Below, one piece after another: positions 4,605-40,636 of a stretch of DNA of 47,744 nucleotides; the first letter of the stretch is position 1, and the number at the start of each line of letters is the position of its first letter. Both the position numbers and the translations under genes were made by a program. The DNA is taken from contig CAYRAX010000001.1 of the NCBI GenBank assembly GCA_964422285.1, positions 1 through 47,744 of the forward strand, in the 5' to 3' direction. The DNA comes from an uncultured Chthonomonas sp. (lineage in GTDB: Bacteria > Armatimonadota > Fimbriimonadia > Fimbriimonadales > Fimbriimonadaceae). Under the pieces are notes generated by a model. It was not told the DNA's origin, did not search any database, and saw only the letters and a list, made by a program, of their open reading frames with translations.

Positions 4605-5189
4605 TCAGCTAATTTGTTTCAAGGCATCGGCGAGCATTTCGGTAGGCAAACCGATCACGTTGTTGATGCTGCCTTCGACGCACTCGATGAATTGGTGGCT
4701 AGCGTCCTGCAGGCCATAAGCGCCCGCCTTATCCATCGGCTGGCCCGTCGCCACGTATGCTTCGATTTCCGATTCGCTCAGCGTTCGAAAGGTGACTTTG
4801 GAGCAATCGGCAAAGAGGTGCAGCCCCTTTGGCCACCGCAGCGCGACGCCAGTGATGACCTCGTGGGTTTGGCCAGAAAGTTGGGCGAGCATGGCTCTGG
4901 CGTGGGCCTCGTCGCTCGGCTTTGCCAACTGGGTGTGACCGTTCGGAGAGCTCAGAGCGACAACGGTGTCACCGCCGATCACCAAGCAATCAGGATTCGA
5001 TTCAAAGACGTGCATCGCCTTTTCGCGCGCGAGCACTTGGGCCGTCTGCCAAGGATCATCCGACAAAAATTCGTCTTCATCAAGGTCCGCCGCGACCACT
5101 CGAAATTCGGTCACCAATTCGCGCAAAAGCTCCTGGCGCCGAGGGGACGCGCTCGCCAAAATCACGGGATATTTCAGGCGAAGCGGCAT
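4605..5189 (-). CDS. maf: Maf-like nucleoside triphosphate pyrophosphatase
   Basis: N-terminal ILASASPRRQELL motif; 194 aa with overall Maf/YhdE layout. Confidence 0.85.
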   Translation of the reverse strand: MPLRLKYPVILASASPRRQELLRELVTEFRVVAADLDEDEFLSDDPWQTAQVLAREKAMHVFESNPDCLVIGGDTVVALSSPNGHTQLAKPSDEAHARAMLAQLSGQTHEVITGVALRWPKGLHLFADCSKVTFRTLSESEIEAYVATGQPMDKAGAYGLQDASHQFIECVEGSINNVIGLPTEMLADALKQIS

Positions 5190-5214: not shown

Positions 5215-6093
5215 TTACGCTCGCATGATGAGGGCGCTATATGATTCGCTCGCGACCACATGCATGGCGATGCTACCGATCAGCACTCGGTGCATGAAAC
5301 CATGGCCTTGGGCACCAAGAATGATCATTTCGGAGTCGGTATCTTGCACCACTTTGCGAATCGTGACGAGGACCGGCCCGGTTCGAACGACCGGCGAAGC
5401 TTCAATCCCGGCGGCCGTGAGCTTATCGACGACCTGCTGCGTGTGGTTGGTCGCAAACTCCTCCATGCGGGCGTAAACCTCTTGCGTGGTCGCAATCGGC
5501 ACGTGCACGGCGGCGGACATCGTGTCGACGACGGGTTCGATCACCTGCAGCACCGTCACATGGCCCAGCCCCTTCGGCTGAAAATTGATCAAATGATCGA
5601 CGCAGCGATCGCAATAGGCGCTACCATCTACAGCCAAAACCGCGCGAACGGGGCCGCTGGCAATGGTGGGACGCGCGACCAAGATGCTCTGCTTGGCTCC
5701 AGCGGCCAGCGCACGCGTGACAGATCCGAGGAAAAGCGCGCCAATAGCACTCTTTTGCTCCGAGCCAACCGCGATCAGGTCTGCGCTGATCTCATCGGCA
5801 ACGCGCATCAGGGCATCGGCGGCGAGTCCATCGGCAACTTTTGCGTGGGTTCGAATACCACGGGCATTGAGTTCGTTTGCCGCTTGTTCGGCGTTAGCCA
5901 CGGCGGCCGTGTGCAGCGCGCGAAACACATCGGAGCTGAGCGCCATGCTCGAAGACATGGTCACGGGGACGCTGTATATGGGTTCAGCCGCCGAAACCGC
6001 GGTCACCTCGGGTTCAGCAAATTGCATTCGCGAGAGAAGGTCAATCGCGTGCTGATGGGTCGCCTGGGAATGAGCACCAAGCACAATTTTCAT
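5215..6093 (-). CDS. Universal stress protein, tandem USP domains
   Basis: Two USP-like halves, with a C-terminal IILGAQGHGFMHRVLIGSIAMHVV motif. I moved the start to ATG 6093 (MKIVLGAHS) because GAGG lies 9 nt upstream; the track ORF starts at 6111. Confidence 0.75.
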   Translation of the reverse strand: MKIVLGAHSQATHQHAIDLLSRMQFAEPEVTAVSAAEPIYSVPVTMSSSMALSSDVFRALHTAAVANAEQAANELNARGIRTHAKVADGLAADALMRVADEISADLIAVGSEQKSAIGALFLGSVTRALAAGAKQSILVARPTIASGPVRAVLAVDGSAYCDRCVDHLINFQPKGLGHVTVLQVIEPVVDTMSAAVHVPIATTQEVYARMEEFATNHTQQVVDKLTAAGIEASPVVRTGPVLVTIRKVVQDTDSEMIILGAQGHGFMHRVLIGSIAMHVVASESYSALIMRA

Positions 6094-7899: not shown

Positions 7900-8960
7900 T
7901 CGTCGTTGTCAGCAATGGCGGCGGCAGCCTGGCCATTCACCACGGCGCTACCGCGTTCGGCCTGAACAGCGACGCGAATTTTGGAGTCAATTTCGCCCAG
8001 CACTTCGGGATGCTCATCGAGGTAGTTTCGAGCGTTATCGCGGCCTTGGCCCAGCCGGATATCGTTGAAATTGTAGTAGGTGCCCGCTTTGGTGACGATG
8101 TTTCGCGCTACCGCGTTATCCAAAACATCGCCGGATTTGCTGATGCCTTTTCCAAAGATGATGTCGAATTCGGCCAGTTTGAAGGGTGGCGCAACCTTGT
8201 TTTTGACGACTTTGACTTTGGTGCGCGCGCCGATTTGGTCGGTGCCGACCTTGATTGCTTCGGATCGTTTGACTTCCAATCGAACGCTGGCCCAGAACTT
8301 GAGCGCGCGGCCACCGGGAGTGGTCTCGGGGTTACCGTACATCACGCCGATTTTTTCGCGAAGTTGGTTGATGAAGATCACGACGGTATTGGATTTGTTG
8401 ATGCTGCCGCCGAGTTTTCGCAAAGCTTGACTCATCATTCGGGCCTGAATGCCCACGTGGCTGTCGCCCATTTCTCCTTCAATTTCTGCGCGAGGTACGA
8501 GCGCCGCAACCGAGTCGAGCACCACAACATCAACCGCACCAGAGCGAATGATTGCGTCCATGATCTCCAGCGCTTCTTCACCGGTCGTCGGCTGACTAAC
8601 ATAGAGGCGGTCGACATCTACACCCAGCGCGCGCGCGTATTCGATATCGAGCGCGTGCTCGGCATCAACGACCAGCGCTAGGCCACCCGACTTTTGGCAT
8701 TCGGCGACGCAGTGGAGCGCAAGCGTTGTTTTTCCGCTGGATTCCGCACCATAAATTTCGGTGATTCGTCCGCGCGGCAGGCCCCCGATTCCCAATGCCA
8801 TATCCAAGCTGAGCGAACCCGTGGAAACGGCTTCCACCAATTCTCGCTCGCCCGAACCCATGCGCATGATCGCCCCCTTGCCAAAGGCTTTTTCGATCTG
8901 CGACAAGGCGGTGTCAAGCGTTCTTTCTCGGTCAGCAACTGCAATCTTTTCGTTGGCCAC
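7896..8960 (-). CDS. recA: Recombinase RecA
   Basis: [23 protein letters not shown] Walker [11 protein letters not shown] and [32 protein letters not shown] lies 6 nt before the GTG start. Confidence 0.97.
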
Positions 8961-11246: not shown

Positions 11247-11657
11247 TCAATTAGGCTCGGGCTTGAAGAGCCAGAAGTGGGCGCCCTGGTTATCGCAGAT
11301 GAGCGCGATTCGGCCGACGGTGGGGATATCAAAAGCCGGTACGCGGCACGAGCCACCAGCGGCTTCGGCTTTAGCAACAGACGAATCCACGTCGTCCACA
11401 TTGATGTAGGTGGACCAATGCGGCGGAACCTCCGCCATCTCGCCGACGGTGGCCATGATGCCGCACATCGCGACTTCACCCTTGCAGAACATCGTGTAGG
11501 TTCCCATCGGGCCCATATCCATCGACTTGGTCGTCCAGCCAAGCACGCTTGTGTAAAACTCGATTGCCTTGTTGACATCGGGCACGTTTACTTCGTGCCA
11601 AGTGAAAGTTGAACCAACGGTGAGCAAAAATTCATTGATTTCTTGAGTTTCAGCCAT
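11247..11657 (-). CDS. VOC/glyoxalase-family protein
   Basis: 136-aa product from ATG 11657 (GGAGGACAATTT ATG). VOC-like pattern FTWHEVNVPDVNKAIEFYTSVLGW ... GRIALICDNQGAHFWLF. The longer 225-aa track ORF has no SD. Confidence 0.75.
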   Translation of the reverse strand: MAETQEINEFLLTVGSTFTWHEVNVPDVNKAIEFYTSVLGWTTKSMDMGPMGTYTMFCKGEVAMCGIMATVGEMAEVPPHWSTYINVDDVDSSVAKAEAAGGSCRVPAFDIPTVGRIALICDNQGAHFWLFKPEPN

Positions 11658-11764
11658 AAATTGTCCTCCGCGCGCACGTTGGCGCGCACACTCGCAATTA
11701 TACGGCGCGACAGCTCGCTGGAGATCCACAATTCGCGACAAAAGCAAATTTTGCCTAGGTCTAC

Positions 11765-11793
11765 TTGGAAAAATGAGCAGGCTATGATAGAAT
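11765..11793 (+). promoter_or_regulatory. Sigma70-like promoter for the 11832 gene
   Basis: TTGGAA, an exact 17-nt spacer, then TAGAAT. A 5'UTR hairpin GGAGCA-N6-TGCTCC (11800-11817) and SD GGAGAGG follow. Confidence 0.4.
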
Positions 11794-11831
11794 ATGGGCG
11801 GAGCATGATATTGCTCCTGCGGAGAGGATTT

Positions 11832-12812
11832 ATGAAGAGATTGTTGTTTGTCGCCCTCGCGGCTACCGCTTTTGTGTCGGCTCAAGCTTCGTTTGAGCTT
11901 GCCCTGGTGCTGGATGTCGATCACGCAAATAGCAGAGCGGACATAAAGCGATTCGATGTTAACACTGGTGCGTACTTAGGTAGTTTTGGCGGCGGATATA
12001 TAAACTATACTGCCAACAATTCAGTGCTTACCTTGGATCAGGCAAATAGCGCAGTTTATGTCACGCAATCAAGTGCCGCGGTACTGAAGTTCAATTACAA
12101 CACTGGTGAGTATTTAGGGGAATTTTACCCTGTAAACACAATGATCTTTGGGGTAAGTTTGCAATCGAATACTCTCATCGGAGCGTGGACAGGAAACACG
12201 TCTTTCTTAACGCGTTATTCCACCAGCGGAACTTACGAAGGATCCTATTATGGTGGATTCGGTACAGGGTTGCGAGGTGCAGTTACATACAATGGCATGT
12301 TGTTCGCGCCAGACTCTGTTAACAAGCAACTGCTCAAGTGGAACTATGGCGCCCTGGGTAGCACGGCTACCGTAGCAGGTGCGATGCCTGGTTGGAATAG
12401 CGGTTATGGGTGGGAAGTTGAGGCGATCTCAAATCGCTTGTATTGGTCCGATCAATACAACAATCTCATAAACGCTAATGTCAACGCATCTGGAGTGATT
12501 ACCGGTAATTCTCTGATAAGTTTTGCGGGCCAAGGTATCACGTTCTCCCAAGGTCTGGGCAAAGGGCACGGCGACATGCTTTATTTGGGTGGTACCGATG
12601 CCGGACGAGCAAACGGAAAAGTGTGCCGTTACAATTCGGCAACGGGCCAATTTCGCGGTACCTTTGGTGCGGGATACTTGCATGATCCTTCATCAATTGA
12701 TGTCGTTCTTGCGCCCGAGCCGAGCGTGTGGTTTGGCCTTGCGTTTGGCGTGGGCTTGGTTGCTAAGCGCCGCCGAGCATCGTTCCATGAGCGGTCAAAT
12801 TTAGGAGTTTAG
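11832..12812 (+). CDS. PEP-CTERM-anchored secreted repeat protein (beta-propeller-like)
   Basis: Signal peptide MKRLLFVALAATAFVSAQA. Recurring motif RFDVNTGAYLGSFG / KFNYNTGEYLGEFY / RYSTSGTYEGSYYG / RYNSATGQFRGTFG. C-terminal APEPS, a TM segment and a KRRR sorting signal. Confidence 0.8.
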   Translation: MKRLLFVALAATAFVSAQASFELALVLDVDHANSRADIKRFDVNTGAYLGSFGGGYINYTANNSVLTLDQANSAVYVTQSSAAVLKFNYNTGEYLGEFYPVNTMIFGVSLQSNTLIGAWTGNTSFLTRYSTSGTYEGSYYGGFGTGLRGAVTYNGMLFAPDSVNKQLLKWNYGALGSTATVAGAMPGWNSGYGWEVEAISNRLYWSDQYNNLINANVNASGVITGNSLISFAGQGITFSQGLGKGHGDMLYLGGTDAGRANGKVCRYNSATGQFRGTFGAGYLHDPSSIDVVLAPEPSVWFGLAFGVGLVAKRRRASFHERSNLGV

Positions 12813-12860: not shown

Positions 12861-14507
12861 TCAGTCCGAATACCAGTCGACATTGCTCTCAACCATTGAA
12901 CTGGCTAAAGGCGTGGTCGCTGGAAAGGATGTACCACGGTAGTTTGGCGTAGTTCCTCCGTTCGTGTTGTTGTAAAAAGTTGAGTATGCACTACCGCCTC
13001 CTGCTGCAACCTTCGCGCTGCTTGGCGCGACGAACTCCGTGTTTAGCACGTAGCACGTAGCAGGACTTGTCATGCCGCTACCGCCAATTTGAATCATTGC
13101 ACTTGTGCCAGTGCACTCGATCATGCACCCATCGAGCGTTAGTGACGCGTCATTCCAAGGGTTATTTATGATGATGGCGCGGGCGGCTGTATCTAGTTGC
13201 GTGATCGAGCATCCAACAAAGTACATGTCGCGAAAATACATTTGGGTTCCCGAATTTGCGTAAAATCGAATAGCGGCGGCGTTATCCGTTGTTGTGCAGT
13301 GCACGTTGCAGGCTAAGAACGTGTCTCCGACCGGAATACCTAGAGGTGCAGCAGGGTTCGGGTCATCCTGCGTCGTTTCGAAACGGATTCGATTGCAATA
13401 CACACCTTCAAAAGATGAGTCGCGGATGGCGGCAGCAAGGCGCAAGTCCGCGCAATTGATCGCGGAGTAGGTGACAAAGCTTGCTCCCCTGCGCCATTCG
13501 GTGTTCCCAACGGAAACCGGCCAGTCGCAAGCCGAAACGTTACTGACGCTGCCGTTGTAGCTGTCGCCGCCGTGAATGTCCACCGCCCCGTCCGTAGTTC
13601 CATCAGCAAAAAAGCCGTCGACAGTCCAAGCAGAAGTACCACTTTCTATGCTGACCCCATAGCGTGCATTGATCACCTTGGATTGCAGAACCTTGGCATT
13701 GATGCATCTATCCAGGTGGATCGAGTACGAAGAGCCGGTACCAGCACCGGTGACGAGGTCGCGGGCGGTGCAACGCGAGACTTCAACATCACGCGAATAG
13801 TTAATCGAGAATCCGGCGAGCCGCGATTTTTCGCCGGAGCAATCCTGAAGGGTGATGCCAGCGCAAAAGCCAGCGCGTAGCCAAGAGTTATAGCCATTTT
13901 CGGTGCGCCCAACGAATTTGAAACCTTTGATGAGCACGTTCTCAACCACGGAGACGTTGTTCGGGAGTAAGGACAGCCGTGGATCATAGTCGGTATCGGG
14001 TGCCGGGTAGCTTTGCGTGAGAGGTGCTGTGAAGGTGACGTTGCTTCCCGAAACCGATCTTACTTGAACTAATTCCCCGCCAATATCACGCGAAACCGTC
14101 GGGAAACTTGCATTAGTTTCTTTCTTCTTTGTATCTCTCAAGAAGTACCACTGGCCCGGCGTCGGTGCGGTGCCAGAAAAGGCCACGGTTTGATCCCCCG
14201 GCTCCGCGCCGTTGGATAGCGCGGCGGAGCCGGTGTCGTCAAGGTCGAACTCGGATGAGCCCACCTGAAGACTCCAATGTCCCAAGCCTGGACTAGTCCC
14301 TAACGTCAGGTCGCGCACGCTGCCGCCGCGCTGCAACCTCAATTGGGAATTTGGCCCAGGTTGAAATACGATGGGTAAAGGTAGGTTCAGATCATATCGG
14401 CCCGAGATTTTCGTCCGACAGTTCTCTCCGATGCTCCGAGCAATTCGGGACGACAAAACGGACCCGGAACTGCGCTTACGAGCACGAAGTCTGGTGCTAC
14501 GCAACAT
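12861..14507 (-). CDS. Module 1 protein C: right-handed parallel beta-helix protein, no signal peptide
   Basis: Periodic beta-helix rungs (ITLQDCSG, VEVSRCTARD, INAKVLQSKV ...) and the motif DIHGGDSYNG. Paralogue of 37055..38701. Its start overlaps the stop of protein B by 11 nt. Confidence 0.75.
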   Translation of the reverse strand: MLRSTRLRARKRSSGSVLSSRIARSIGENCRTKISGRYDLNLPLPIVFQPGPNSQLRLQRGGSVRDLTLGTSPGLGHWSLQVGSSEFDLDDTGSAALSNGAEPGDQTVAFSGTAPTPGQWYFLRDTKKKETNASFPTVSRDIGGELVQVRSVSGSNVTFTAPLTQSYPAPDTDYDPRLSLLPNNVSVVENVLIKGFKFVGRTENGYNSWLRAGFCAGITLQDCSGEKSRLAGFSINYSRDVEVSRCTARDLVTGAGTGSSYSIHLDRCINAKVLQSKVINARYGVSIESGTSAWTVDGFFADGTTDGAVDIHGGDSYNGSVSNVSACDWPVSVGNTEWRRGASFVTYSAINCADLRLAAAIRDSSFEGVYCNRIRFETTQDDPNPAAPLGIPVGDTFLACNVHCTTTDNAAAIRFYANSGTQMYFRDMYFVGCSITQLDTAARAIIINNPWNDASLTLDGCMIECTGTSAMIQIGGSGMTSPATCYVLNTEFVAPSSAKVAAGGGSAYSTFYNNTNGGTTPNYRGTSFPATTPLASSMVESNVDWYSD

Positions 14508-15285
14508 GTTTGCACCGTCGTAGCCGAATCACTGTCAGCGTACACCAGCCCCCGAGAAGCAATGTTGTGCTTGGCTCCGGCACAACAACACGTCGAACGC
14601 CGTCAACAAATACTCCGGGGGCGCCTTGAGCCAATGGATAAACCCCGGACAAGTCGTCTTGTATCTTGGACATAATGGTCATCGTACGCGCCGACTTTGA
14701 CGTTTCAAGTGGGTTTAGGTGGTGGAGTTGTAACAATAGATTATCGACTCTATAACTAACCAGCTTTGTTGAAAAATCAATGCGAACTTTAATGTTGGTC
14801 CATTGTCCAAGATGCAATGGTACATCGAAATTGGGGAGAGATCCTCCGTACCCAAAAGTCGTTACAACCTGACTTTGGAAGTCAACGATAACACCCAGTG
14901 CCGTGCTAAGAAAGGGGAAGCCAATGCTTACGCGCTGGCCCACAAAGTCTTCTTTCGCCACCAACAAGCTAATGGAGTACTCCACAGCAGGTATCTGCGG
15001 CAAATTGTCGTACGGTGCGTAAATCCCCGCCAAGTCACCGTTTGAAACTGACCGAATTTCCAGCATCTTGTCCCCCTCGTAAGGCACGACGCCGCGCGTA
15101 GTCGAACGAACCATCGGCGCCGGGTGCGGATAGGGCCAAAATGTCGTGTCGATTGTCCAGGGCCCCTTTGGGTACAAATAATCAGCTGAATCCGCCTTGT
15201 AGGATTCAAACCCATCAAAGAATGTCTGCGCGTTGGATGCGATTGCAAATAGGGAAAAGAGCGACAACAATATAAGCTTTTTCAC
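14497..15285 (-). CDS. Module 1 protein B: secreted PEP-CTERM protein, lectin/LamG-like jelly-roll suspected
   Basis: GTG start 8 nt after GAGGAG. Signal peptide MKKLILLSLFSLFAIASNAQ, and C-terminal VPEPSTTLLLGGWCTLTVIRLRR. Paralogue of 38715..39521. Confidence 0.8.
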   Translation of the reverse strand: MKKLILLSLFSLFAIASNAQTFFDGFESYKADSADYLYPKGPWTIDTTFWPYPHPAPMVRSTTRGVVPYEGDKMLEIRSVSNGDLAGIYAPYDNLPQIPAVEYSISLLVAKEDFVGQRVSIGFPFLSTALGVIVDFQSQVVTTFGYGGSLPNFDVPLHLGQWTNIKVRIDFSTKLVSYRVDNLLLQLHHLNPLETSKSARTMTIMSKIQDDLSGVYPLAQGAPGVFVDGVRRVVVPEPSTTLLLGGWCTLTVIRLRRCKHVA

Positions 15286-15297
15286 AGTAATTTCTCC

Positions 15298-16143
15298 TCA
15301 TTGATATCTTTGTAGGGCCCACGTGATGCTCGTGGCTTGAACGGCGTTTGCGCCACTTGGAACGGATAAGACTACAGAGTAGAGGCCCTGATCGAGTTCA
15401 ATGTGAGCGGTGAAGGTATTGCTGCCCGCATCAGTTAACGTGAACACTTCATCAATCGATGAGATTTGGGACGTGTACGTCACTGGCGTGGCATCCAGCG
15501 TCGTCGCCTTGCGATAAGCCTGAACGCGCATATTGCGAACCGAGTTGGTTGCGAACGTTTGCGTCCACTTCACAAATAGCGACGCCATTACCGACGAGGT
15601 GACGTCGATATCGAAGGCGGTCGCTGAACTCCCGACCGAAATGTTTGACACCGACGTCCCGGTCACCGGCGGGTCAGTGTAACCCGGGCCCAGCGACGGT
15701 TGCCATACACCTGAAGGCCCACCCAAGATGACCGGGCCAGGATTTAGCCGTAGGCCACCTTCCTTAGGGTCTTCAGTGGCGATCGGAACTGCGGGGCCGT
15801 TGCCATCAAGGAGCAGTAGCGGTCCGCCTATCAATACACCGCGAAACTCTGCACAGTCTGCCCATGCGTGATACGGAGTGCCGGGACTACCGTAGTGAGC
15901 GACCAAGTCGCCGATTGATTTAGCGGTTGTACTTGGCGCGAGGCTGTAAGTCACGACGTTATTATCGCCTAGCCGCCTTCCGTCCATTGCATAAAACGAT
16001 CCTATCAAACGACGCGGCGCGGCGTCGGTGGCTTTCAGCACAAAACCAAGAGGAGATCGGCGTTCAACGCCGTCGTACTGCTTGAGTACCGGAACGAGCA
16101 CCACTTCGAAGGAATCTGCGGTGGTAGTGTTTTCAATGTACAA
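15298..16143 (-). CDS. Module 1 protein A, long part (281 aa), unknown function
   Basis: The ORF begins at TTG with no SD, in the same frame as the upstream 67-aa ORF across a single TAA. Paralogue of 39532..40461 (AEFRGVLIGGP, NPGPVILGGP, FDIDVT..LFVKW, ELDQGLYSVV). Confidence 0.6.
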   Translation of the reverse strand: MYIENTTTADSFEVVLVPVLKQYDGVERRSPLGFVLKATDAAPRRLIGSFYAMDGRRLGDNNVVTYSLAPSTTAKSIGDLVAHYGSPGTPYHAWADCAEFRGVLIGGPLLLLDGNGPAVPIATEDPKEGGLRLNPGPVILGGPSGVWQPSLGPGYTDPPVTGTSVSNISVGSSATAFDIDVTSSVMASLFVKWTQTFATNSVRNMRVQAYRKATTLDATPVTYTSQISSIDEVFTLTDAGSNTFTAHIELDQGLYSVVLSVPSGANAVQATSITWALQRYQ

Positions 16144-16164
16144 TACGGTGATACCGGCGGGAAC

Positions 16165-16368
16165 TTAAAAATCTACCCCCCCCCCGACATTAAGCGTTGC
16201 CAACAATGCGCCAGAAGCGTCGGTCGAATAGATTTTGGCCTGCACTATGCCGAAGTTAATGCCCCGGTAGCTTGACCCCGGTCGAACAGCGACTTTGGTC
16301 GACTCGTTGGCTTGTACTAAGACTCCGTTACTGACAGGCCCTTGTTCAAACACTGTTGGAAATGGCAT
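16165..16368 (-). CDS. Module 1 protein A, SD-bearing N-terminal ORF (67 aa) ending just after the poly-G tract
   Basis: GGGAGG lies 10 nt before ATG 16368. Codons 61-63 are GGG GGG GGG inside the G10 run, and TAA follows four codons later. Confidence 0.5.
   Translation of the reverse strand: MPFPTVFEQGPVSNGVLVQANESTKVAVRPGSSYRGINFGIVQAKIYSTDASGALLATLNVGGGVDF
16176..16185 (-). repeat. Homopolymer: 10 C on plus strand = G10 in the minus-strand coding frame
   Basis: Counted directly: atcta-CCCCCCCCCC-gacat. Confidence 0.95.
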
Positions 16369-16405
16369 GTTGTCCTAACCTCCCTGAGGAATCGTCCTCG
16401 TTTTC

Positions 16406-16434
16406 ATTCTATAACACATTTTGAATTCATGCAA
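16406..16434 (-). promoter_or_regulatory. Sigma70-like promoter of module 1
   Basis: Minus strand reads TTGCAT, an exact 17-nt spacer, then TAGAAT. A 5'UTR hairpin GAGGA-N4-TCCTC and SD GGGAGG follow. Confidence 0.45.
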
Positions 16435-34232: not shown

Positions 34233-35192
34233 ATGAAATCAAAGAGAGTTACCCTGGCCGCGCTGGCCATGGCGTGCTTGGGCAGTGGAGCGAACGCTGT
34301 CCTGTTCGCCGACAATTTTAACACTGACACGTCTGCCAGCTGGGCAGTCAACAAGTCATCGCTGACCGCCGTGAGCAGCGCAACGTTTGGCTTTGACTAC
34401 AGCACCTATGGCATTCCTTCCGCGCCAAATTCAAGCGGCGATACGCACGGATTGAAGATGGATGCGAACACCAATGCGACGACGCAAGCGTTTAGCGGCT
34501 TGAGCGTTTCTCCGCTGGGTCAATCGTTTACGGGCGACTATGAAATGCGCGCTGACGTTTGGATGAACTTCGTCGGACCGGCCCCGGCTGGCGGCAGCGG
34601 TTCGACTCAAGCGGGCGGCATGGGCATCGGCACTGCGGGCAGTACCGCCCAGTGGGCTGGTGGTGCACAAGACAGCATCCACTTCAGCGCAACGACTGAC
34701 GGTAACTCGGCAACCGACTGGCGTGCCTATTCGAGCGCCGCGCCCAGCGCATATGCCGATGCAAGCAGCGTTTACGCGGCTGGCGCGGTAGCGGGCAACC
34801 GAAACAACAGCAATGCTTACTACTCGAGCTTTGTTGGTCAATCCGCTCCATCAGCCCAAACGACGCTTTTCGCGACCCAAACCGGTACCGCGCTGAACGG
34901 CACGCTCGCCTTTGGTTGGCACGACATGCGCGTCAAGCGGGTAGGAAACATTGTCACTTGGTCGGTTGACGGCAAGCTGATCGCGACTGTTGACGCTTCG
35001 ACCGTAACGCTGGGTGGCAACAACATCTTGCTCAACTACTACGACACAAACGGAACCGCCTCAACGGCTGCCAACAAGTTCCTGACCTGCATGATCGTTG
35101 ACAACCTGCAAGTCGTACCAGAGCCGAGCACTTGGCTCGCTCTTGGTCTCGGATCAGCAATGCTGCTCCGACGCCGCGCTCGCAAGTCGTAA
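34233..35192 (+). CDS. PEP-CTERM-anchored secreted protein, LamG/DUF1080-like jelly-roll suspected
   Basis: Signal peptide (LAALAMACLGSGANA), N-terminal FADNFNTD, and C-terminal VDNLQVVPEPSTWLALGLGSAMLLRRRARKS. Confidence 0.8.
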   Translation: MKSKRVTLAALAMACLGSGANAVLFADNFNTDTSASWAVNKSSLTAVSSATFGFDYSTYGIPSAPNSSGDTHGLKMDANTNATTQAFSGLSVSPLGQSFTGDYEMRADVWMNFVGPAPAGGSGSTQAGGMGIGTAGSTAQWAGGAQDSIHFSATTDGNSATDWRAYSSAAPSAYADASSVYAAGAVAGNRNNSNAYYSSFVGQSAPSAQTTLFATQTGTALNGTLAFGWHDMRVKRVGNIVTWSVDGKLIATVDASTVTLGGNNILLNYYDTNGTASTAANKFLTCMIVDNLQVVPEPSTWLALGLGSAMLLRRRARKS

Positions 35193-37054: not shown

Positions 37055-38701
37055 TTAGTTCGCGGCCCAGGTGCAGGTCACGTCGCTCGAGATCAGCGAC
37101 CTTGTTGGCGGTGGTGCGCTCGGGTTGGGGTCTCGCGTGTTGTTCGCCGTGCCACCGTTAGTTTTGTTGTAGAATGTGCCGCTCTCGGTTCCCGCAATCG
37201 CGATCTTCTTCGAAGAGCTTAACTTGAACGTCGAGCCCGAGGCAAATACAGTCGCATCAGCTCCACCAATTCGCATCATGTCGACTCCCGAGGCCGCTGT
37301 GAGCGTGCTTGCGGTGAACGTCATGTCGGAATTTTCCGCTACTACTGGAATGTCCATGAGGTAATGCCCGGCCACTGCCGATAGATGGCAAGAGTTGAAC
37401 ACAACGCCATCGAACTGATAGAACGAGGGTGATCCGGTCCCAAATGCGAGAGTATTATTGGATGAGGCAGTACACACGATGTCACAGTCGGTGAATGCGA
37501 CATCTTCCATGAAATATGCCATCGATGGCGACGTATCCTCGTATGAGTAAATCTCGATGTGGTCGATGCGACAAGACTCGATCGACGCTTCTTTCACTTG
37601 CCCCTGAACTGCCAGCTTGTAAATCGACGAATTGCTTATTGTTATTTTTGTTCCGCCCAATCGCCAAGAAGAGTTGCCGAATTGCAGGGATTGGCCCTCG
37701 GCACAGGCAACCATGTCCACGGTTCCATTGTAAGAGTCCCCTCCGTGAATGTCAAATACGGCGGCCGAGATAAGGCTGTTGCCTGCCGCGCCCGAAATAC
37801 TAAATCCGGTGCATCCTGCCTCCAATTGACAGGCGTACCGCGCGTCGCAAGCCGAAACTTGGTTGGCCTTCACGTTCGCACATTGTTGCAATTGCAACGA
37901 ATATCCGTTGCCCGACGAGCCAGACTTGCCGACTCCCATCGCGTAGTGATCGATGATTTCGACGTCTTTACAGTAGTGAATGGATGTCCCTGTACTCCAA
38001 CTGTTGCCAACCCGACAATTTTGCATTGAAAGGCCAGCGACAAAGCGAATGTTAAGCGCCGCTAACGTTCCTTTGTCGTTCGCCCGATCTCGGATTCCGG
38101 TCACTCGTAGGCCGCGAATGCCGATGTTTTGCAGCACTTTGCCGTTGGGCGAGTTGCTCAGGCGAGAGCCGGCGGGATAGTCGCGGCCGACGTTTTGGTA
38201 AAAAACAACGTTCCAGGTGCTGGCGTCGATTTGTTCGACGGTGTTAACCTGCACCAGTTCGCCGCCGATGGGGCGATAAGTGCTCGTGTTTTGGTAGCGT
38301 TCTTGCCGCTGAAAGTCAATGAGGAAATACCATTCCCCCGCCACCGGTGCCGAGCCAGTAACGTCCACAAAGTTGTCACCTTCGGCGATCGCGACTGACA
38401 GCACGGGTCCGCTTTCGTCTATGTCTTGAATGACGTCTCCAACATTGAGCGGAGCCGAAGCAGTGGGAGGAGTGTACGTAGAGTTCGCTTTCGCCCGTAT
38501 TGACGATCCACGCGCCCACGTGATGACCATGTTGGACAAGTCAACAGGTACAACAACGGTTCCGGCGGTGAAGCTGATCTCCGTGCATCTGACAAAGTAG
38601 GTCCCGCGAATGTTAAAGTACAGTGACGCTGCGCGCCCGTGCCGTGAGCGCTCGATGCGGGCATTCAAGACGCTCACGGAGCGTAACATAGAATTACGCA
38701 T
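37055..38701 (-). CDS. Module 2 protein C: right-handed parallel beta-helix protein, no signal peptide
   Basis: Paralogue of 12861..14507 (GGELVQV, DIHGGDSYNG, TFYNKTNGGT, GEWYFL). I set the start at ATG 38701 (GAAGG upstream); the track ORF start 38752 would overlap protein B by 38 nt. Confidence 0.75.
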   Translation of the reverse strand: MRNSMLRSVSVLNARIERSRHGRAASLYFNIRGTYFVRCTEISFTAGTVVVPVDLSNMVITWARGSSIRAKANSTYTPPTASAPLNVGDVIQDIDESGPVLSVAIAEGDNFVDVTGSAPVAGEWYFLIDFQRQERYQNTSTYRPIGGELVQVNTVEQIDASTWNVVFYQNVGRDYPAGSRLSNSPNGKVLQNIGIRGLRVTGIRDRANDKGTLAALNIRFVAGLSMQNCRVGNSWSTGTSIHYCKDVEIIDHYAMGVGKSGSSGNGYSLQLQQCANVKANQVSACDARYACQLEAGCTGFSISGAAGNSLISAAVFDIHGGDSYNGTVDMVACAEGQSLQFGNSSWRLGGTKITISNSSIYKLAVQGQVKEASIESCRIDHIEIYSYEDTSPSMAYFMEDVAFTDCDIVCTASSNNTLAFGTGSPSFYQFDGVVFNSCHLSAVAGHYLMDIPVVAENSDMTFTASTLTAASGVDMMRIGGADATVFASGSTFKLSSSKKIAIAGTESGTFYNKTNGGTANNTRDPNPSAPPPTRSLISSDVTCTWAAN

Positions 38702-38714
38702 GCGCTGCCTTCGG

Positions 38715-39521
38715 TTACGCACGCCGAGGTCTCCTTGAAAGTAATAGGGCACTGACTCCTAACGTAACTCCCACCGCACTACTCGGTTCTGGCACGGCCT
38801 GAAGAGTCACATCGTCCACGAGCATGCCTGGAATACCTTGGTCCACTGGGTATTCATCGGCGTAGTTGGCTGTTGTAGAAACTCCAAAACTAAATCTTTC
38901 CACTTTGTACGGAGGTGGAGTCTGCCCTGTGACAAAAGTGCGCGAATCCATCAGCTTCCAATTGTAATAAAGGTAGGTCTTTTTTGACGTCCAATCTATA
39001 CGAACTCTTAGCTCATTCCAAGCGTCCCGAGTCACAACTAATGCCTGCGGCTGCGCGCCGAGTCTTCTAAAAGTGTTGTTGAATAGGTCAATCTGCGCGA
39101 TACCATCTGCTGAATTCCCTCCGTTGAAGAGCGATGTGTGTAGGCCGAATGTCAGGATGGTTTTGACGTTGTAAGATTTCGGCACTGCAAATCGAAAAGC
39201 CATATCCACAACGGGATGCGAAATGCTGTTTGAGTTCAAACTGTGTCGCAGATTGCGATTGCCCTTGATCGCGCTCCCTCGAAAGTCGTACATCTGGTTG
39301 CCGCTGTAGGGCGAGACTCCATCTTTCGGCCCTTCGACGACGGTCGGAAATCGTTCGCCGGCGTCAAGGTCAATATCAAAGTCGCCGAATGAGTAAAGCG
39401 CATCCCAATCCTGGGTTCCGGGGCGATAAGATTCCCAATCGTCGTGGAACAGGGTTTGGGCGTTTGTGATCGACGCAACGGCAAGAGTGCAAAAAGCAAT
39501 CGAAATAGATTTGAATTTCAT
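38715..39521 (-). CDS. Module 2 protein B: secreted PEP-CTERM protein, lectin/LamG-like jelly-roll suspected
   Basis: ATG 39521 lies 5 nt after AAGGAGG. Signal peptide MKFKSISIAFCTLAVASITNAQ, and C-terminal VPEPSSAVGVTLGVSALLLSRRPRR. The track ORF start 39617 lies inside protein A. Confidence 0.8.
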   Translation of the reverse strand: MKFKSISIAFCTLAVASITNAQTLFHDDWESYRPGTQDWDALYSFGDFDIDLDAGERFPTVVEGPKDGVSPYSGNQMYDFRGSAIKGNRNLRHSLNSNSISHPVVDMAFRFAVPKSYNVKTILTFGLHTSLFNGGNSADGIAQIDLFNNTFRRLGAQPQALVVTRDAWNELRVRIDWTSKKTYLYYNWKLMDSRTFVTGQTPPPYKVERFSFGVSTTANYADEYPVDQGIPGMLVDDVTLQAVPEPSSAVGVTLGVSALLLSRRPRRA

Positions 39522-39531
39522 TGTGTCCTCC

Positions 39532-40461
39532 TTAAAGGAATCGTTGCAAGTAAACGTACACCGCGATTTCGTAAGTTTGGCTTGTTGAAAAATAGACTCG
39601 ATACTTTCCTGGATCAAGTTCTACATGATTAGCTGAAACATAAGGGCCAGCAAAAAAGAATGTTTCTTGGACATTCGCGTTTGCTGAAACAATCAAGGTT
39701 GGATCGTTCGTGTACGTGGTCGGGTATGCGGTTACGGTCAGGTCTCCATCGACTTCTCCATTTAGATTCCACCGCACGAACAGCCGAGTCAGTCCCGCTC
39801 CAGAAACGTCAATGTCCACGTACTGCGGCGTTTCATCGGTGATCACTGAATCCCAAATTTGTGCCGCCGGTTCGATGCATGTCCCCGTGTTGCGCGCCGG
39901 TTGCTCCACTCCGTTCGGGCCAAGAATCACCGGTCCTGGCTGGATTGTCAACCCGTAGCTTAGAGGACTGTAACCTGTTTCCGGAGTGCTCACGTTTGCT
40001 GCGGGCGATCCTTCCACGACAAGCATTGGGCCGCCTTGGAGTACACCGCGAAACTCCACCGCATCAACCCACATGCTGTCCGTGCCAAACAGGAGGTACC
40101 CTACTGTTTCGGGATCTGAAGAGGCACTAACCGAAACAACTGCATCGGAAGTCCCAGGGGGTATCAGTGCGATGCCACTAGCGCTGAAAAACGTGCCCAC
40201 AAGTGTCGCATTCTCCTGTGACGCCATTTGAATAACATAGGACATCGGCGACATTGCAATGCCGCTCCACAATGTGTTGATCAACGGCTCGACAGTGACG
40301 TGAGCATCGCCGGAAGATGAGAGCCAATACGTCGCTTGTGTCGCCGTTAGGTCGCCAGTTGTGCCCGGGTCCACGGCGAGAGTTGCCCCAATGCCGCTCG
40401 AATTGATAAACACGGCTAATTGATTGGAGCCAAGATTATGAAAACGATAACCTAGCCCCAC
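39532..40461 (-). CDS. Module 2 protein A, long part (309 aa as called), unknown function
   Basis: The called GTG start has no SD, and the frame stays open upstream through the poly-G tract. Paralogue of 15298..16143. Confidence 0.65.
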   Translation of the reverse strand: MGLGYRFHNLGSNQLAVFINSSGIGATLAVDPGTTGDLTATQATYWLSSSGDAHVTVEPLINTLWSGIAMSPMSYVIQMASQENATLVGTFFSASGIALIPPGTSDAVVSVSASSDPETVGYLLFGTDSMWVDAVEFRGVLQGGPMLVVEGSPAANVSTPETGYSPLSYGLTIQPGPVILGPNGVEQPARNTGTCIEPAAQIWDSVITDETPQYVDIDVSGAGLTRLFVRWNLNGEVDGDLTVTAYPTTYTNDPTLIVSANANVQETFFFAGPYVSANHVELDPGKYRVYFSTSQTYEIAVYVYLQRFL

Positions 40462-40562
40462 GGTAAAAGCAAATGGAACCCTAGCTGCCCCCCCCCAGTA
40501 ATTTTAACAGGTGTTCCGATAGGTTTTGACGTTTGCTGAACGTATGTAGACGGTATTGACAA
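40452..40562 (-). CDS. Module 2 SD-bearing short ORF (36 aa) running through the poly-G tract; probable true 5' end of protein A
   Basis: GGGAGG (40569-40574) lies 6 nt before TTG 40562. Translation: MSIPSTYVQQTSKPIGTPVKITGGG, then out-of-frame QLGFHLLLPWG and a stop. Confidence 0.45.
   Translation of the reverse strand: MSIPSTYVQQTSKPIGTPVKITGGGQLGFHLLLPWG
40488..40496 (-). repeat. Homopolymer: 9 C on plus strand = G9 on the minus coding strand
   Basis: Counted directly: agctg-CCCCCCCCC-agtaa. Confidence 0.95.
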
Positions 40563-40607
40563 TTATTTCCTCCCTAAACACCTCGGCACCATCCGAGGGA
40601 CAAGAGA

Positions 40608-40636
40608 ATATTACAACACTATTGATGATAAAGCAA
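40608..40636 (-). promoter_or_regulatory. Sigma70-like promoter of module 2
   Basis: Minus strand reads TTGCTT, an exact 17-nt spacer, then TAATAT. A 5'UTR hairpin CCTCGG-N6-CCGAGG precedes the SD. Confidence 0.4.

Follow-up and report, generated by a model that had tools for sequence, protein, structure and literature searches.

Poly-G and poly-C contingency loci are known from Campylobacter, Neisseria, and Haemophilus, and a repeat in the first gene can switch a whole operon, as in lic1 of Haemophilus influenzae. Reversible inactivation of genes by homopolymers near their 5' ends is well established (PMC2831843), in line with the general principle of homopolymer contingency loci (PMC2831843, PMC8355987). 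Here we describe two paralogous three-gene modules, A-B-C, on a contig of an uncultured Chthonomonas sp., and we propose that they are probably contingency loci, that is, phase-variable, hypervariable operons for an envelope-associated structure. The window that we analyzed is a complete 47,744-nucleotide (nt) contig of an NCBI metagenome-assembled genome (MAG). It was compared with related metagenomic loci (L001 to L027, of which L019 is a Logan contig), and DNA was retrieved for at least 15 distinct loci. As in the known systems, there is a 5' coding G/C run of 9 to 14 nt with one ON phase in three, the products appear to be envelope associated, several paralogous loci carry tracts, and tract length differs in one pair of near-identical sequences. 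The A-B-C modules differ in that their hosts are a free-living Armatimonadota lineage, no described family includes their proteins, the tract has arisen anew at four or more positions, and the switch sits at the edge of a hypervariable cassette. We found no report of phase variation or of PEP-CTERM proteins for Chthonomonas or Armatimonadetes/Armatimonadota in the published literature.

A preliminary description of this DNA had reported two minus-strand A-B-C triplets with the same gene order, and the open reading frames (ORFs) are where it placed them. Its outer coordinates, 16434 and 40636, are not gene ends but the first bases of promoter-like -35 hexamers. The features of the two modules are as follows.

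16165..16368, minus strand: A1 5' segment; ATG at 16368, 61 codons, tract, in-frame TAA at 16167-16165
16176..16185, minus strand: copy 1 poly-G tract; G10, a frame-keeping length
15298..16164, minus strand: A1 main body; 288 codons after the TAA (main ORF 15298-16143/16164), three predicted beta-sandwich-like domains, no known family
14497..15285, minus strand: B1; signal peptide, weak ConA/LamG-like domain signal, PEP-CTERM tail
12861..14507, minus strand: C1; Arg-rich N-terminal helix, small beta domain, probable right-handed beta-helix, conserved DIHGG
40452..40562, minus strand: A2 5' segment; TTG at 40562, 22 codons, tract, 11 out-of-frame codons, TAG (36 amino acids)
40488..40496, minus strand: copy 2 poly-G tract; G9, OFF phase
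39532..40488, minus strand: A2 main body; 318 codons in the +1-nt frame relative to the start codon (main ORF 39532-40461/40488)
38715..39521, minus strand: B2; signal peptide, weak ConA/LamG-like domain signal, PEP-CTERM tail
37055..38722, minus strand: C2; Arg-rich N-terminus, probable beta-helix (the longest ORF reaches 38752)

Apart from the two A tracts, no homopolymer in the window reaches 8 nt. Both tracts are coding-strand runs in the 5' part of A. The same is true of all 10 G/C runs of at least 8 nt in 153.5 kb of non-redundant sequence from the window and related loci: every one is coding-strand poly-G in the 5' part of A. Upstream of the tract, both A genes have a strong Shine-Dalgarno (SD) sequence, AGGGAGG, and a start codon (ATG at 16368 and TTG at 40562). 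In copy 2, the G9 tract places the SD-preceded TTG and the long A2 ORF in different frames, and translation ends after 36 codons. Changing the tract in silico to G10 or G7 gives a protein of 343 or 342 amino acids. In copy 1, the G10 tract is in phase, yet an in-frame TAA (16167-16165) follows three codons past it. This codon is GAA both in L019, which is 99.4% identical, and in L001, a 91% relative. Therefore, the TAA of A1 is a derived nonsense mutation. A1 is locked off by it despite an ON-length tract, with B1 and C1 intact. The preliminary description took A to be one intact protein, whereas both A genes in the window are interrupted as sequenced, and it overlooked the conserved hypermutable tract as well as the hypervariability of the cassette described below.

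The reading frame upstream of the tract belongs to A. In the tract-less orthologues L023 and L025, the N-terminal peptide of A2, SIPSTYVQQTSKPIGTPV, is continuous with full-length A, and in tract-less alleles the sequence SIPSTY.Q.TSKPIGTPV leads directly into the A body. Because these orthologues read through, the short ORF ahead of the tract encodes the actual N-terminus of A. We edited the tract in silico in window copy 2, L019, L021, L002, L004, L011, L013, L014, and L010, and judged L024 by eye. In each of the nine edited loci, exactly one tract phase gave an ORF of 342 to 377 amino acids from the SD-preceded start, whereas the other two phases gave 17 to 86 amino acids; L024 was judged to behave alike. 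Window copy 1 is the exception to this one-phase toggle, owing to its TAA. Of the 12 tract-bearing loci, two are ON and nine are OFF; +1 nt would bring five of the nine into frame, and -1 nt the other four. Tracts range from G9 to G14 in 10 related loci, and one locus has a C7 run. Tract length also differs between near-identical sequences: it is G10 in the window and G11 in L019, with 11 other mismatches in 1743 nt at 99.4% identity. The state of each locus is listed below.

Window copy 1: G10, in phase, TAA nonsense codon
L019: G11, OFF
Window copy 2: G9, OFF
L020: G9, OFF
L021/L022: G9, OFF
L002/L012: G12, OFF
L004-L009: G10, OFF
L014: G10, OFF
L024: G12, OFF (judged by eye)
L010: C7, OFF
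L011/L015: G14, ON
L013: G10, ON
L016: no tract, intact
L023: interrupted (GGGTGGGG), intact
L025-L027: tract lost, intact

When the reconstructed ON proteins are aligned, the tract falls at no fewer than four non-homologous positions: at about column 16 for the poly-C of L010, about 38 in most lineages, about 73 in L004, and about 91 in copy 1 and L019. In L011, a 57% relative of copy 1, the tract occupies the column 38 site. Therefore, the tract has been gained repeatedly, and we read this repeated gain as selection on mutability itself rather than on a peptide motif. GGG is the rarest glycine codon here (14%), and the probability of three consecutive GGG codons is about 0.003. A need for a Gly-Gly-Gly peptide as the cause of the G-run was rejected, because the glycines are not conserved in tract-less alleles and because of this rarity of GGG. 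The ratio of nonsynonymous to synonymous substitution rates (dN/dS) is 0.19 between window A2 and L020, both of which are G9 and OFF, and 0.06 between A1 and L001. On the first of these values, the OFF alleles of A are under purifying selection.

Some observations on loci without poly-G also concern this region. L016 has an A8 run (4646-4653) in the promoter-like region upstream of its intact A gene. In L010, the C7 run (8775-8781, codons 16-18) shifts the frame of the conserved MPVPPVIPSNYQ start away from that of the A body, and an upstream ATG in the frame of the body was called as the start instead. More generally, A is split or given a wrong start by gene callers in most assemblies, and systematic mis-annotation of the family is the result. 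In the metagenomic contigs L001, L020, and L027, position 1 coincides with or adjoins the tract, or marks the boundary between conserved and hypervariable sequence. Such contig ends would be expected if assemblies break where a population is heterogeneous.

All three protein pairs in the window are paralogous, as had been proposed from the motifs they share, and those motifs are present. BLASTP between the copies gave 32% identity for A1 and A2 (E 2e-25), 29% for B1 and B2 (E 2e-14), and 30% over the full length for C1 and C2 (E 1e-58). The duplication was described as old, and each copy indeed has separate orthologues elsewhere: L001, L019, and L011 are of the copy 1 type, and L020, L021, L023, and L025 are of the copy 2 type. 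In both copies, the A stop codon lies within the SD sequence of B (aTGAGGAG..GTG in copy 1 and tTAAGGAGG..ATG in copy 2). The C start overlaps the B stop by 11 nt in copy 1, where it is an ATG, and by 8 nt in copy 2, where the best start is the GTG at 38722, with AAGGAG 8 nt upstream. Beyond the window, too, every lineage has overlapping or abutting start and stop codons, with overlaps of 4 to 11 nt. This is consistent with translational coupling, and so with the earlier argument for co-translation of A-B-C as a unit.

The triplet is not peculiar to this contig. The preliminary description had suggested a search for co-occurrence of A, B, and C in other genomes, and the triplet recurs in at least 12 further metagenomic lineages. 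A-B-C synteny, with start/stop overlaps of 4 to 11 nt, was found in all lineages with long enough contigs. For the A family, an exhaustive HMMER search of 1.84 billion protein cluster representatives returned 28 representatives (24 at E <1e-30), a word-indexed profile search returned 13 proteins, and a scan of JGI metagenomes returned seven loci. Two pattern scans found no A relatives in GTDB species-representative genomes, a collection in which the source genome may be masked. A profile search with C against a set of 5.8 billion proteins recovered the same four proteins as a single-sequence search. There are variations on the gene order: L002 (9235-13689) has a tandem duplication, A-B-C(truncated, 384 amino acids)-B'-C', and L010 (9784-11590) is A-B-B'-C, with two lipoprotein-type B genes. 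Single metagenomes contain several distinct A-B-C loci (six in Ga0209573, two in ERZ27233592, and two types in SRR16508135). Together with the two loci in the window, this suggests a multi-copy family in which each copy has its own switch.

The cassette is hypervariable between conserved flanks. The copy 2 locus is syntenic with L021 and L025 (PPIase, nitroreductase, and Ppx). Between the window and L025, the flanking proteins are 92.5 to 97.6% identical and the flanking DNA is 89 to 97% identical, whereas A is 52%, B is 36%, and C is 50 to 52% identical. The promoter, the 5' untranslated region (UTR) hairpin, and the first 22 codons of A remain at 88%. Nucleotide identity then falls to about 55 to 63%, beginning at the tract. 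Copy 1 and L001 form a mosaic of a different kind: A and most of C are 90 to 96% identical at the nucleotide level, and a block from about 15117 to 14218, which encodes mature B and the first ~95 residues of C, is at ~54%. These patterns indicate that the locus undergoes allelic replacement or recombination. B and the N-terminus of C travel together in the mosaic, which suggests an interaction between them. A mobile element was considered and rejected, because the chromosomal context is stable and syntenic.

The region upstream of gene A has the following elements, the promoter-like sites having been read by eye.

16406..16434, minus strand: copy 1 promoter-like site; TTGCAT, 17-nt spacer, TAGAAT
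40608..40636, minus strand: copy 2 promoter-like site; TTGCTT, 17-nt spacer, TAATAT
16386..16399, minus strand: copy 1 5' UTR hairpin; GAGGA-cgat-TCCTC, adjoining the SD AGGGAGG (16379-16385); stem flagged on the opposite strand by a scan
40581..40598, minus strand: copy 2 5' UTR hairpin; CCTCGG-atggtg-CCGAGG, upstream of the SD AGGGAGG (40569-40575)

A consensus promoter scan flagged neither promoter-like site, and the -35 hexamer of copy 1 matches the consensus at 3 of 6 positions. An element equivalent to that of copy 1 is also found 5' of A in copy 2, L002, L013, and L025. The promoter-like region of copy 2 is 88% identical in L021 and L025 despite the divergent cassette. In each copy, the hairpin is located downstream of the promoter-like -10 element and upstream of the SD of gene A. 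The copy 2 stem is retained in L021 (about 2070-2090) and L025 (about 5600-5620), and in L023 (about 2070-2092) it is retained with changed bases (CCTCGG/CCGAGG to GCCTCA/TGAGGC). This 5' stem-loop may be mRNA stabilizing or regulatory. An Rfam scan of the window returned no RNA family.

The proteins themselves fall outside any characterized system, as the preliminary description had implied. There was nothing significant in Pfam, NCBIfam, PHROGs, PADLOC, PDB sequences, Foldseek searches, phage genomes, or IMG/VR, the profile scans having covered the family alignments as well as the six proteins, and the PADLOC anti-phage defense models gave no match at E <=0.1 for the six window proteins. That description recognized no family for most of A, and indeed no PDB profile-search match was found for A, and no Pfam or NCBIfam model exists for A or for C. 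An AlphaFold2 (AF2) model of A2 has a mean predicted local distance difference test (pLDDT) score of 79.9 and is all-beta, with three sandwich-like domains. The C-terminal part had been proposed to be a PPC/CBD-type beta-sandwich. The model (pLDDT 85-93 in this part) agrees with a beta-sandwich, but nothing ties it to the PPC/CBD type. The only sequence echo found for A is weak and local: its C-terminal hairpin (ELDxGxYxVxxS) resembles CarboxypepD_reg-type repeats. Foldseek searches of the model against PDB and BFVD returned only generic beta-sandwich matches, at template modeling (TM) scores of 0.31 or less. Assignments of A as a Cry toxin domain, phage tail-tip protein J, birnavirus VP2, or CBM22 were considered and not made, these matches being at the same level (TM <=0.31). 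The motifs EFRGVLxGGP and PGPV are invariant over 15 sequences.

B is the only one of the three with a secretion signal, as had been noted. All 11 B proteins have a Kyte-Doolittle maximum of 2.3 to 3.3 at residues 3 to 9, and the hydropathy scan found nothing comparable at the N-terminus of A or C. The proposed PEP-CTERM tail is also borne out, with TIGR02595 scores of 16.5 (B1) and 18.4 (B2) against a cut-off of 16. PF07589 matches 8 of the 11 B proteins, but B1 and B2 fall short of its gathering score. Thus, B1 and B2 resemble known PEP-CTERM/exosortase proteins (TIGR02595, PF07589) in their signal peptide, VPEPS motif, hydrophobic helix, and Arg cluster. They differ from these in having two signal-less partner genes in the operon, and the family differs in that an N-terminal lipoprotein Cys replaces the tail in four B proteins (L004, both L010 copies, and L016). 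The PEP-CTERM tail is the anchor in most lineages. Because the B anchor is interchangeable, the module does not appear to be tied to exosortase. Mature B opens with the motif F/Y-F-D-x-F-E-x-Y, and a D-D motif lies close to the end of the protein. There is a weak ConA-like signal (Laminin_G_3, E 0.004 in 2 of 11 members), and a PDB profile search gave weak matches to NTNH, GH16, and the neurexin LNS domain (E 0.04-0.8).

C is a protein of ~550 amino acids with a conserved Arg-rich N-terminus (M..R.RLR.R...S...L..RI.R) that is predicted to be helical and is followed by a small beta domain. The rest is probably a tailspike-like right-handed beta-helix. Beta_helix (PF13229) matches seven of nine members, at best with 19.9 bits against a cut-off of 25.9, and there are sub-threshold matches to a PHROG tail protein (E 0.011) and to PDB 6c72 (E 0.012). 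The top Foldseek matches of the C model are phage capsule depolymerases and tailspikes at E 0.003 to 0.07 (best 2.7e-3), which are also sub-threshold and a hint only. The terms "lectin-like" for B and "beta-helix" for C in the preliminary description thus correspond to matches that are all below threshold. C is like tailspike and capsule depolymerases (PDB 7w1d, 4ru4, and 4y9v) in its size, its N-terminal non-helix part, and its weak Beta_helix matches. Unlike them, it has no significant match, is outside the phage genomes searched, and has the conserved Arg-rich N-terminal helix, and its DIHGG is not a known tailspike signature. GGEL, DIHGG, and GN..WRRG are invariant. In the C alignment, the invariant residues D310-x-H312-G-G, E288, G334-N335, and R140..GGEL resemble an active or binding site, and the D-x-H may loosely recall the DPHD motif of mannuronan C5-epimerases. 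The N-terminus of C has no hydrophobic core, and a Tat signal was rejected on that ground.

Our proposal for the module is as follows. Each A-B-C triplet would be a self-contained operon of Chthonomonas-like Armatimonadota. A hypermutable homopolymer, usually poly-G of 9 to 14 nt, located 16 to 62 codons into A would gain or lose a base, presumably reversibly, by slipped-strand mispairing at replication. One phase of three would give full-length A (about 340-377 amino acids), and in the other two translation would stop within about 10 to 25 codons. Through the overlaps of start and stop codons, B and C would be coupled to translation of A. When A is OFF, ~900 nt of its mRNA would be untranslated, and B and C would be lowered too, because coupling is lost and the untranslated A mRNA might cause polarity, so that the whole module is switched. 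B would be exported by Sec and anchored in the envelope by its PEP-CTERM/exosortase tag or lipoprotein Cys. A and C might then reach the surface and join B in one glycan-binding or glycan-cleaving envelope complex. This glycan-active surface complex is the specific part of the model, and we offer it only tentatively, as doubtful in comparison with the switch itself. The cassette is changing, by replacement or diversification, far faster than the genome around it, which suggests that the module is exposed to an agent that discriminates between alleles, such as phages, predators, or neighboring cells.

Several findings weigh against this proposal. Every fold or family assignment of B and C is below significance, and the AF2 model of C is poor (pLDDT 43.6, with five sequences admissible). 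A and C have no signal peptide in any lineage, with no evident export route, and no exosortase match was found among the ORFs scanned in this one 47.7-kb contig. The nonsense codon of copy 1 is beyond repair by tract slippage. Six assemblies of one other strain, from different samples, all have the same OFF length, G10. Finally, the window is from a MAG contig, so its tract lengths are population consensus calls. The tract lengths compared here all come from assemblies, and heterogeneity within populations and reversibility of the switch are presumed.

A rival explanation is that the G-run is instead a site of programmed ribosomal frameshifting or RNA polymerase slippage, with full-length A made constitutively and the tract tuning its amount. 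Long homopolymers can cause RNA polymerase slippage, which is mostly established for A/T runs, and both the out-of-frame G10 shared by six assemblies and the persistence of purifying selection on OFF alleles would fit. However, the direction of the shift is not conserved (+1 nt at five loci versus -1 nt at four), L011 and L013 have in-frame tracts, and L016, L023, and L025 have intact alleles without one. Tract position and flanking sequence also vary between lineages, and no conserved stimulatory structure follows the tract. We therefore regard recoding as improbable as the whole explanation, but DNA-level switching could be accompanied by some leaky expression due to RNA-level slippage. It is less probable again that the tracts are real and their out-of-frame lengths are homopolymer miscalls in MAG and metagenome assemblies, with A intact everywhere. 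Homopolymers of 9 to 14 nt are error prone on several platforms, the window is itself a MAG contig, and the L001 and L020 contigs start or stop at or near the tract. Such miscalls would have to go in both directions, though, and yield the same OFF length in six independent samples and again in both the window and L020. The TAA of copy 1 is a substitution and not a length error, and miscalling leaves unexplained why long G-runs made of the rarest glycine codon (GGG) are found solely in A, at four different positions.

Decay of A makes another case: A would be a dispensable pseudogene that is being lost, only B and C would matter, and the G-runs would merely be spots where frameshifts occur. That 9 of 12 tract-bearing loci are out of frame, and that copy 1 also has a nonsense codon, is what decay would produce. 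But the body of each OFF allele still runs for more than 300 codons without interruption and needs only one 1-nt change to be restored, dN/dS is 0.06 to 0.19, and the EFRGVLxGGP and PGPV motifs have stayed invariant over those 15 sequences. An in-phase fraction of about one-third is also the expectation for an unconstrained switch. On these grounds we give decay very little credence. We give no more to the possibility that the module is a prophage or tailocin remnant, a captured phage receptor-binding module with C as its tailspike and A and B as accessory tail proteins. The sub-threshold likeness of C to tailspike depolymerases and a PHROG tail family points that way, as do the low-TM Foldseek matches of A to phage tail-tip and tail-fiber proteins and the absence of signal peptides from A and C, as in phage structural proteins. 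Against it, 2.9 million IMG/VR contigs and 50,697 phage genomes contained no relative, and there is no other phage gene nearby. The housekeeping flanks are syntenic between genomes (PPIase, nitroreductase, UbiD, FtsZ, BipA, and SerRS), and B is a Sec-exported host-type PEP-CTERM protein or lipoprotein.

A more elaborate version of the contingency-locus proposal is that the module is a "self-borne tailspike" surface system, in which the signal-less A and C would reach the envelope by a route that needs no signal peptide. The Arg-rich helix and N-terminal domain of C would dock onto anchored, lectin-like B, to give a complex that binds or cleaves glycans. Its divergent alleles and paralogues would be numerous, with a separate poly-G switch for each, and would serve in kin or prey recognition or in phage evasion. 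We consider this version unlikely, if a shade less so than recoding. If it is true, a free-living Armatimonadota bacterium would be varying its surface combinatorially. In Myxococcus, TraA is a polymorphic surface recognition receptor with a MYXO-CTERM sorting tag. Like TraA, the module has a putative lectin-like variable domain, a C-terminal sorting anchor, and strong allelic diversity. The analogy is functional only: there is no sequence relationship, and TraA lacks partners like A and C and is not known to be switched by a homopolymer. Receptors of the TraA type are touched on in PMC8546572. Closer to the window's own lineage, Chthonomonas calidirosea isolates differ at two small "horizontally transferred" regions of three to four genes each (CCALI_00447-00449 and CCALI_00804-00807), with frameshifts in one isolate (PMC4959169). 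These regions are possible candidates for a module of this kind.

The remaining window is ordinary chromosome, with genes for AlaRS, PriA, UvrD, DAHP synthase, Pol IV, LipA, UbiD, PPIase, and ArgRS. The UvrD falls into one cluster, at 90% identity or above, with MBL8041098.1, a protein annotated as from Chthonomonas sp., which makes the host a Chthonomonas-like member of Armatimonadota. Two more putative PEP-CTERM proteins are encoded in it, both on the plus strand. The first (11643-12812) has no Pfam domain, has the C-terminal end APEPSVWFGLAFGVGLVAKRRRA, and is convergent to C1. The second (34233-35192) matches PF07589 with E 2.6e-4.

Homopolymer phase variation is known almost entirely from host-adapted pathogens. 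Here, its signature is present in an environmental and poorly studied phylum: a hypermutable tract, a mixture of ON and OFF states, re-invention of the tract, paralogous loci, and a hypervariable cassette between conserved flanks. The module also raises a question of protein sorting, namely how two signal-less proteins would cooperate with a partner that is anchored by exosortase or as a lipoprotein. If our proposal is correct, the locus would be a testable handle on the structures that are under fluctuating, allele-discriminating selection in such bacteria.

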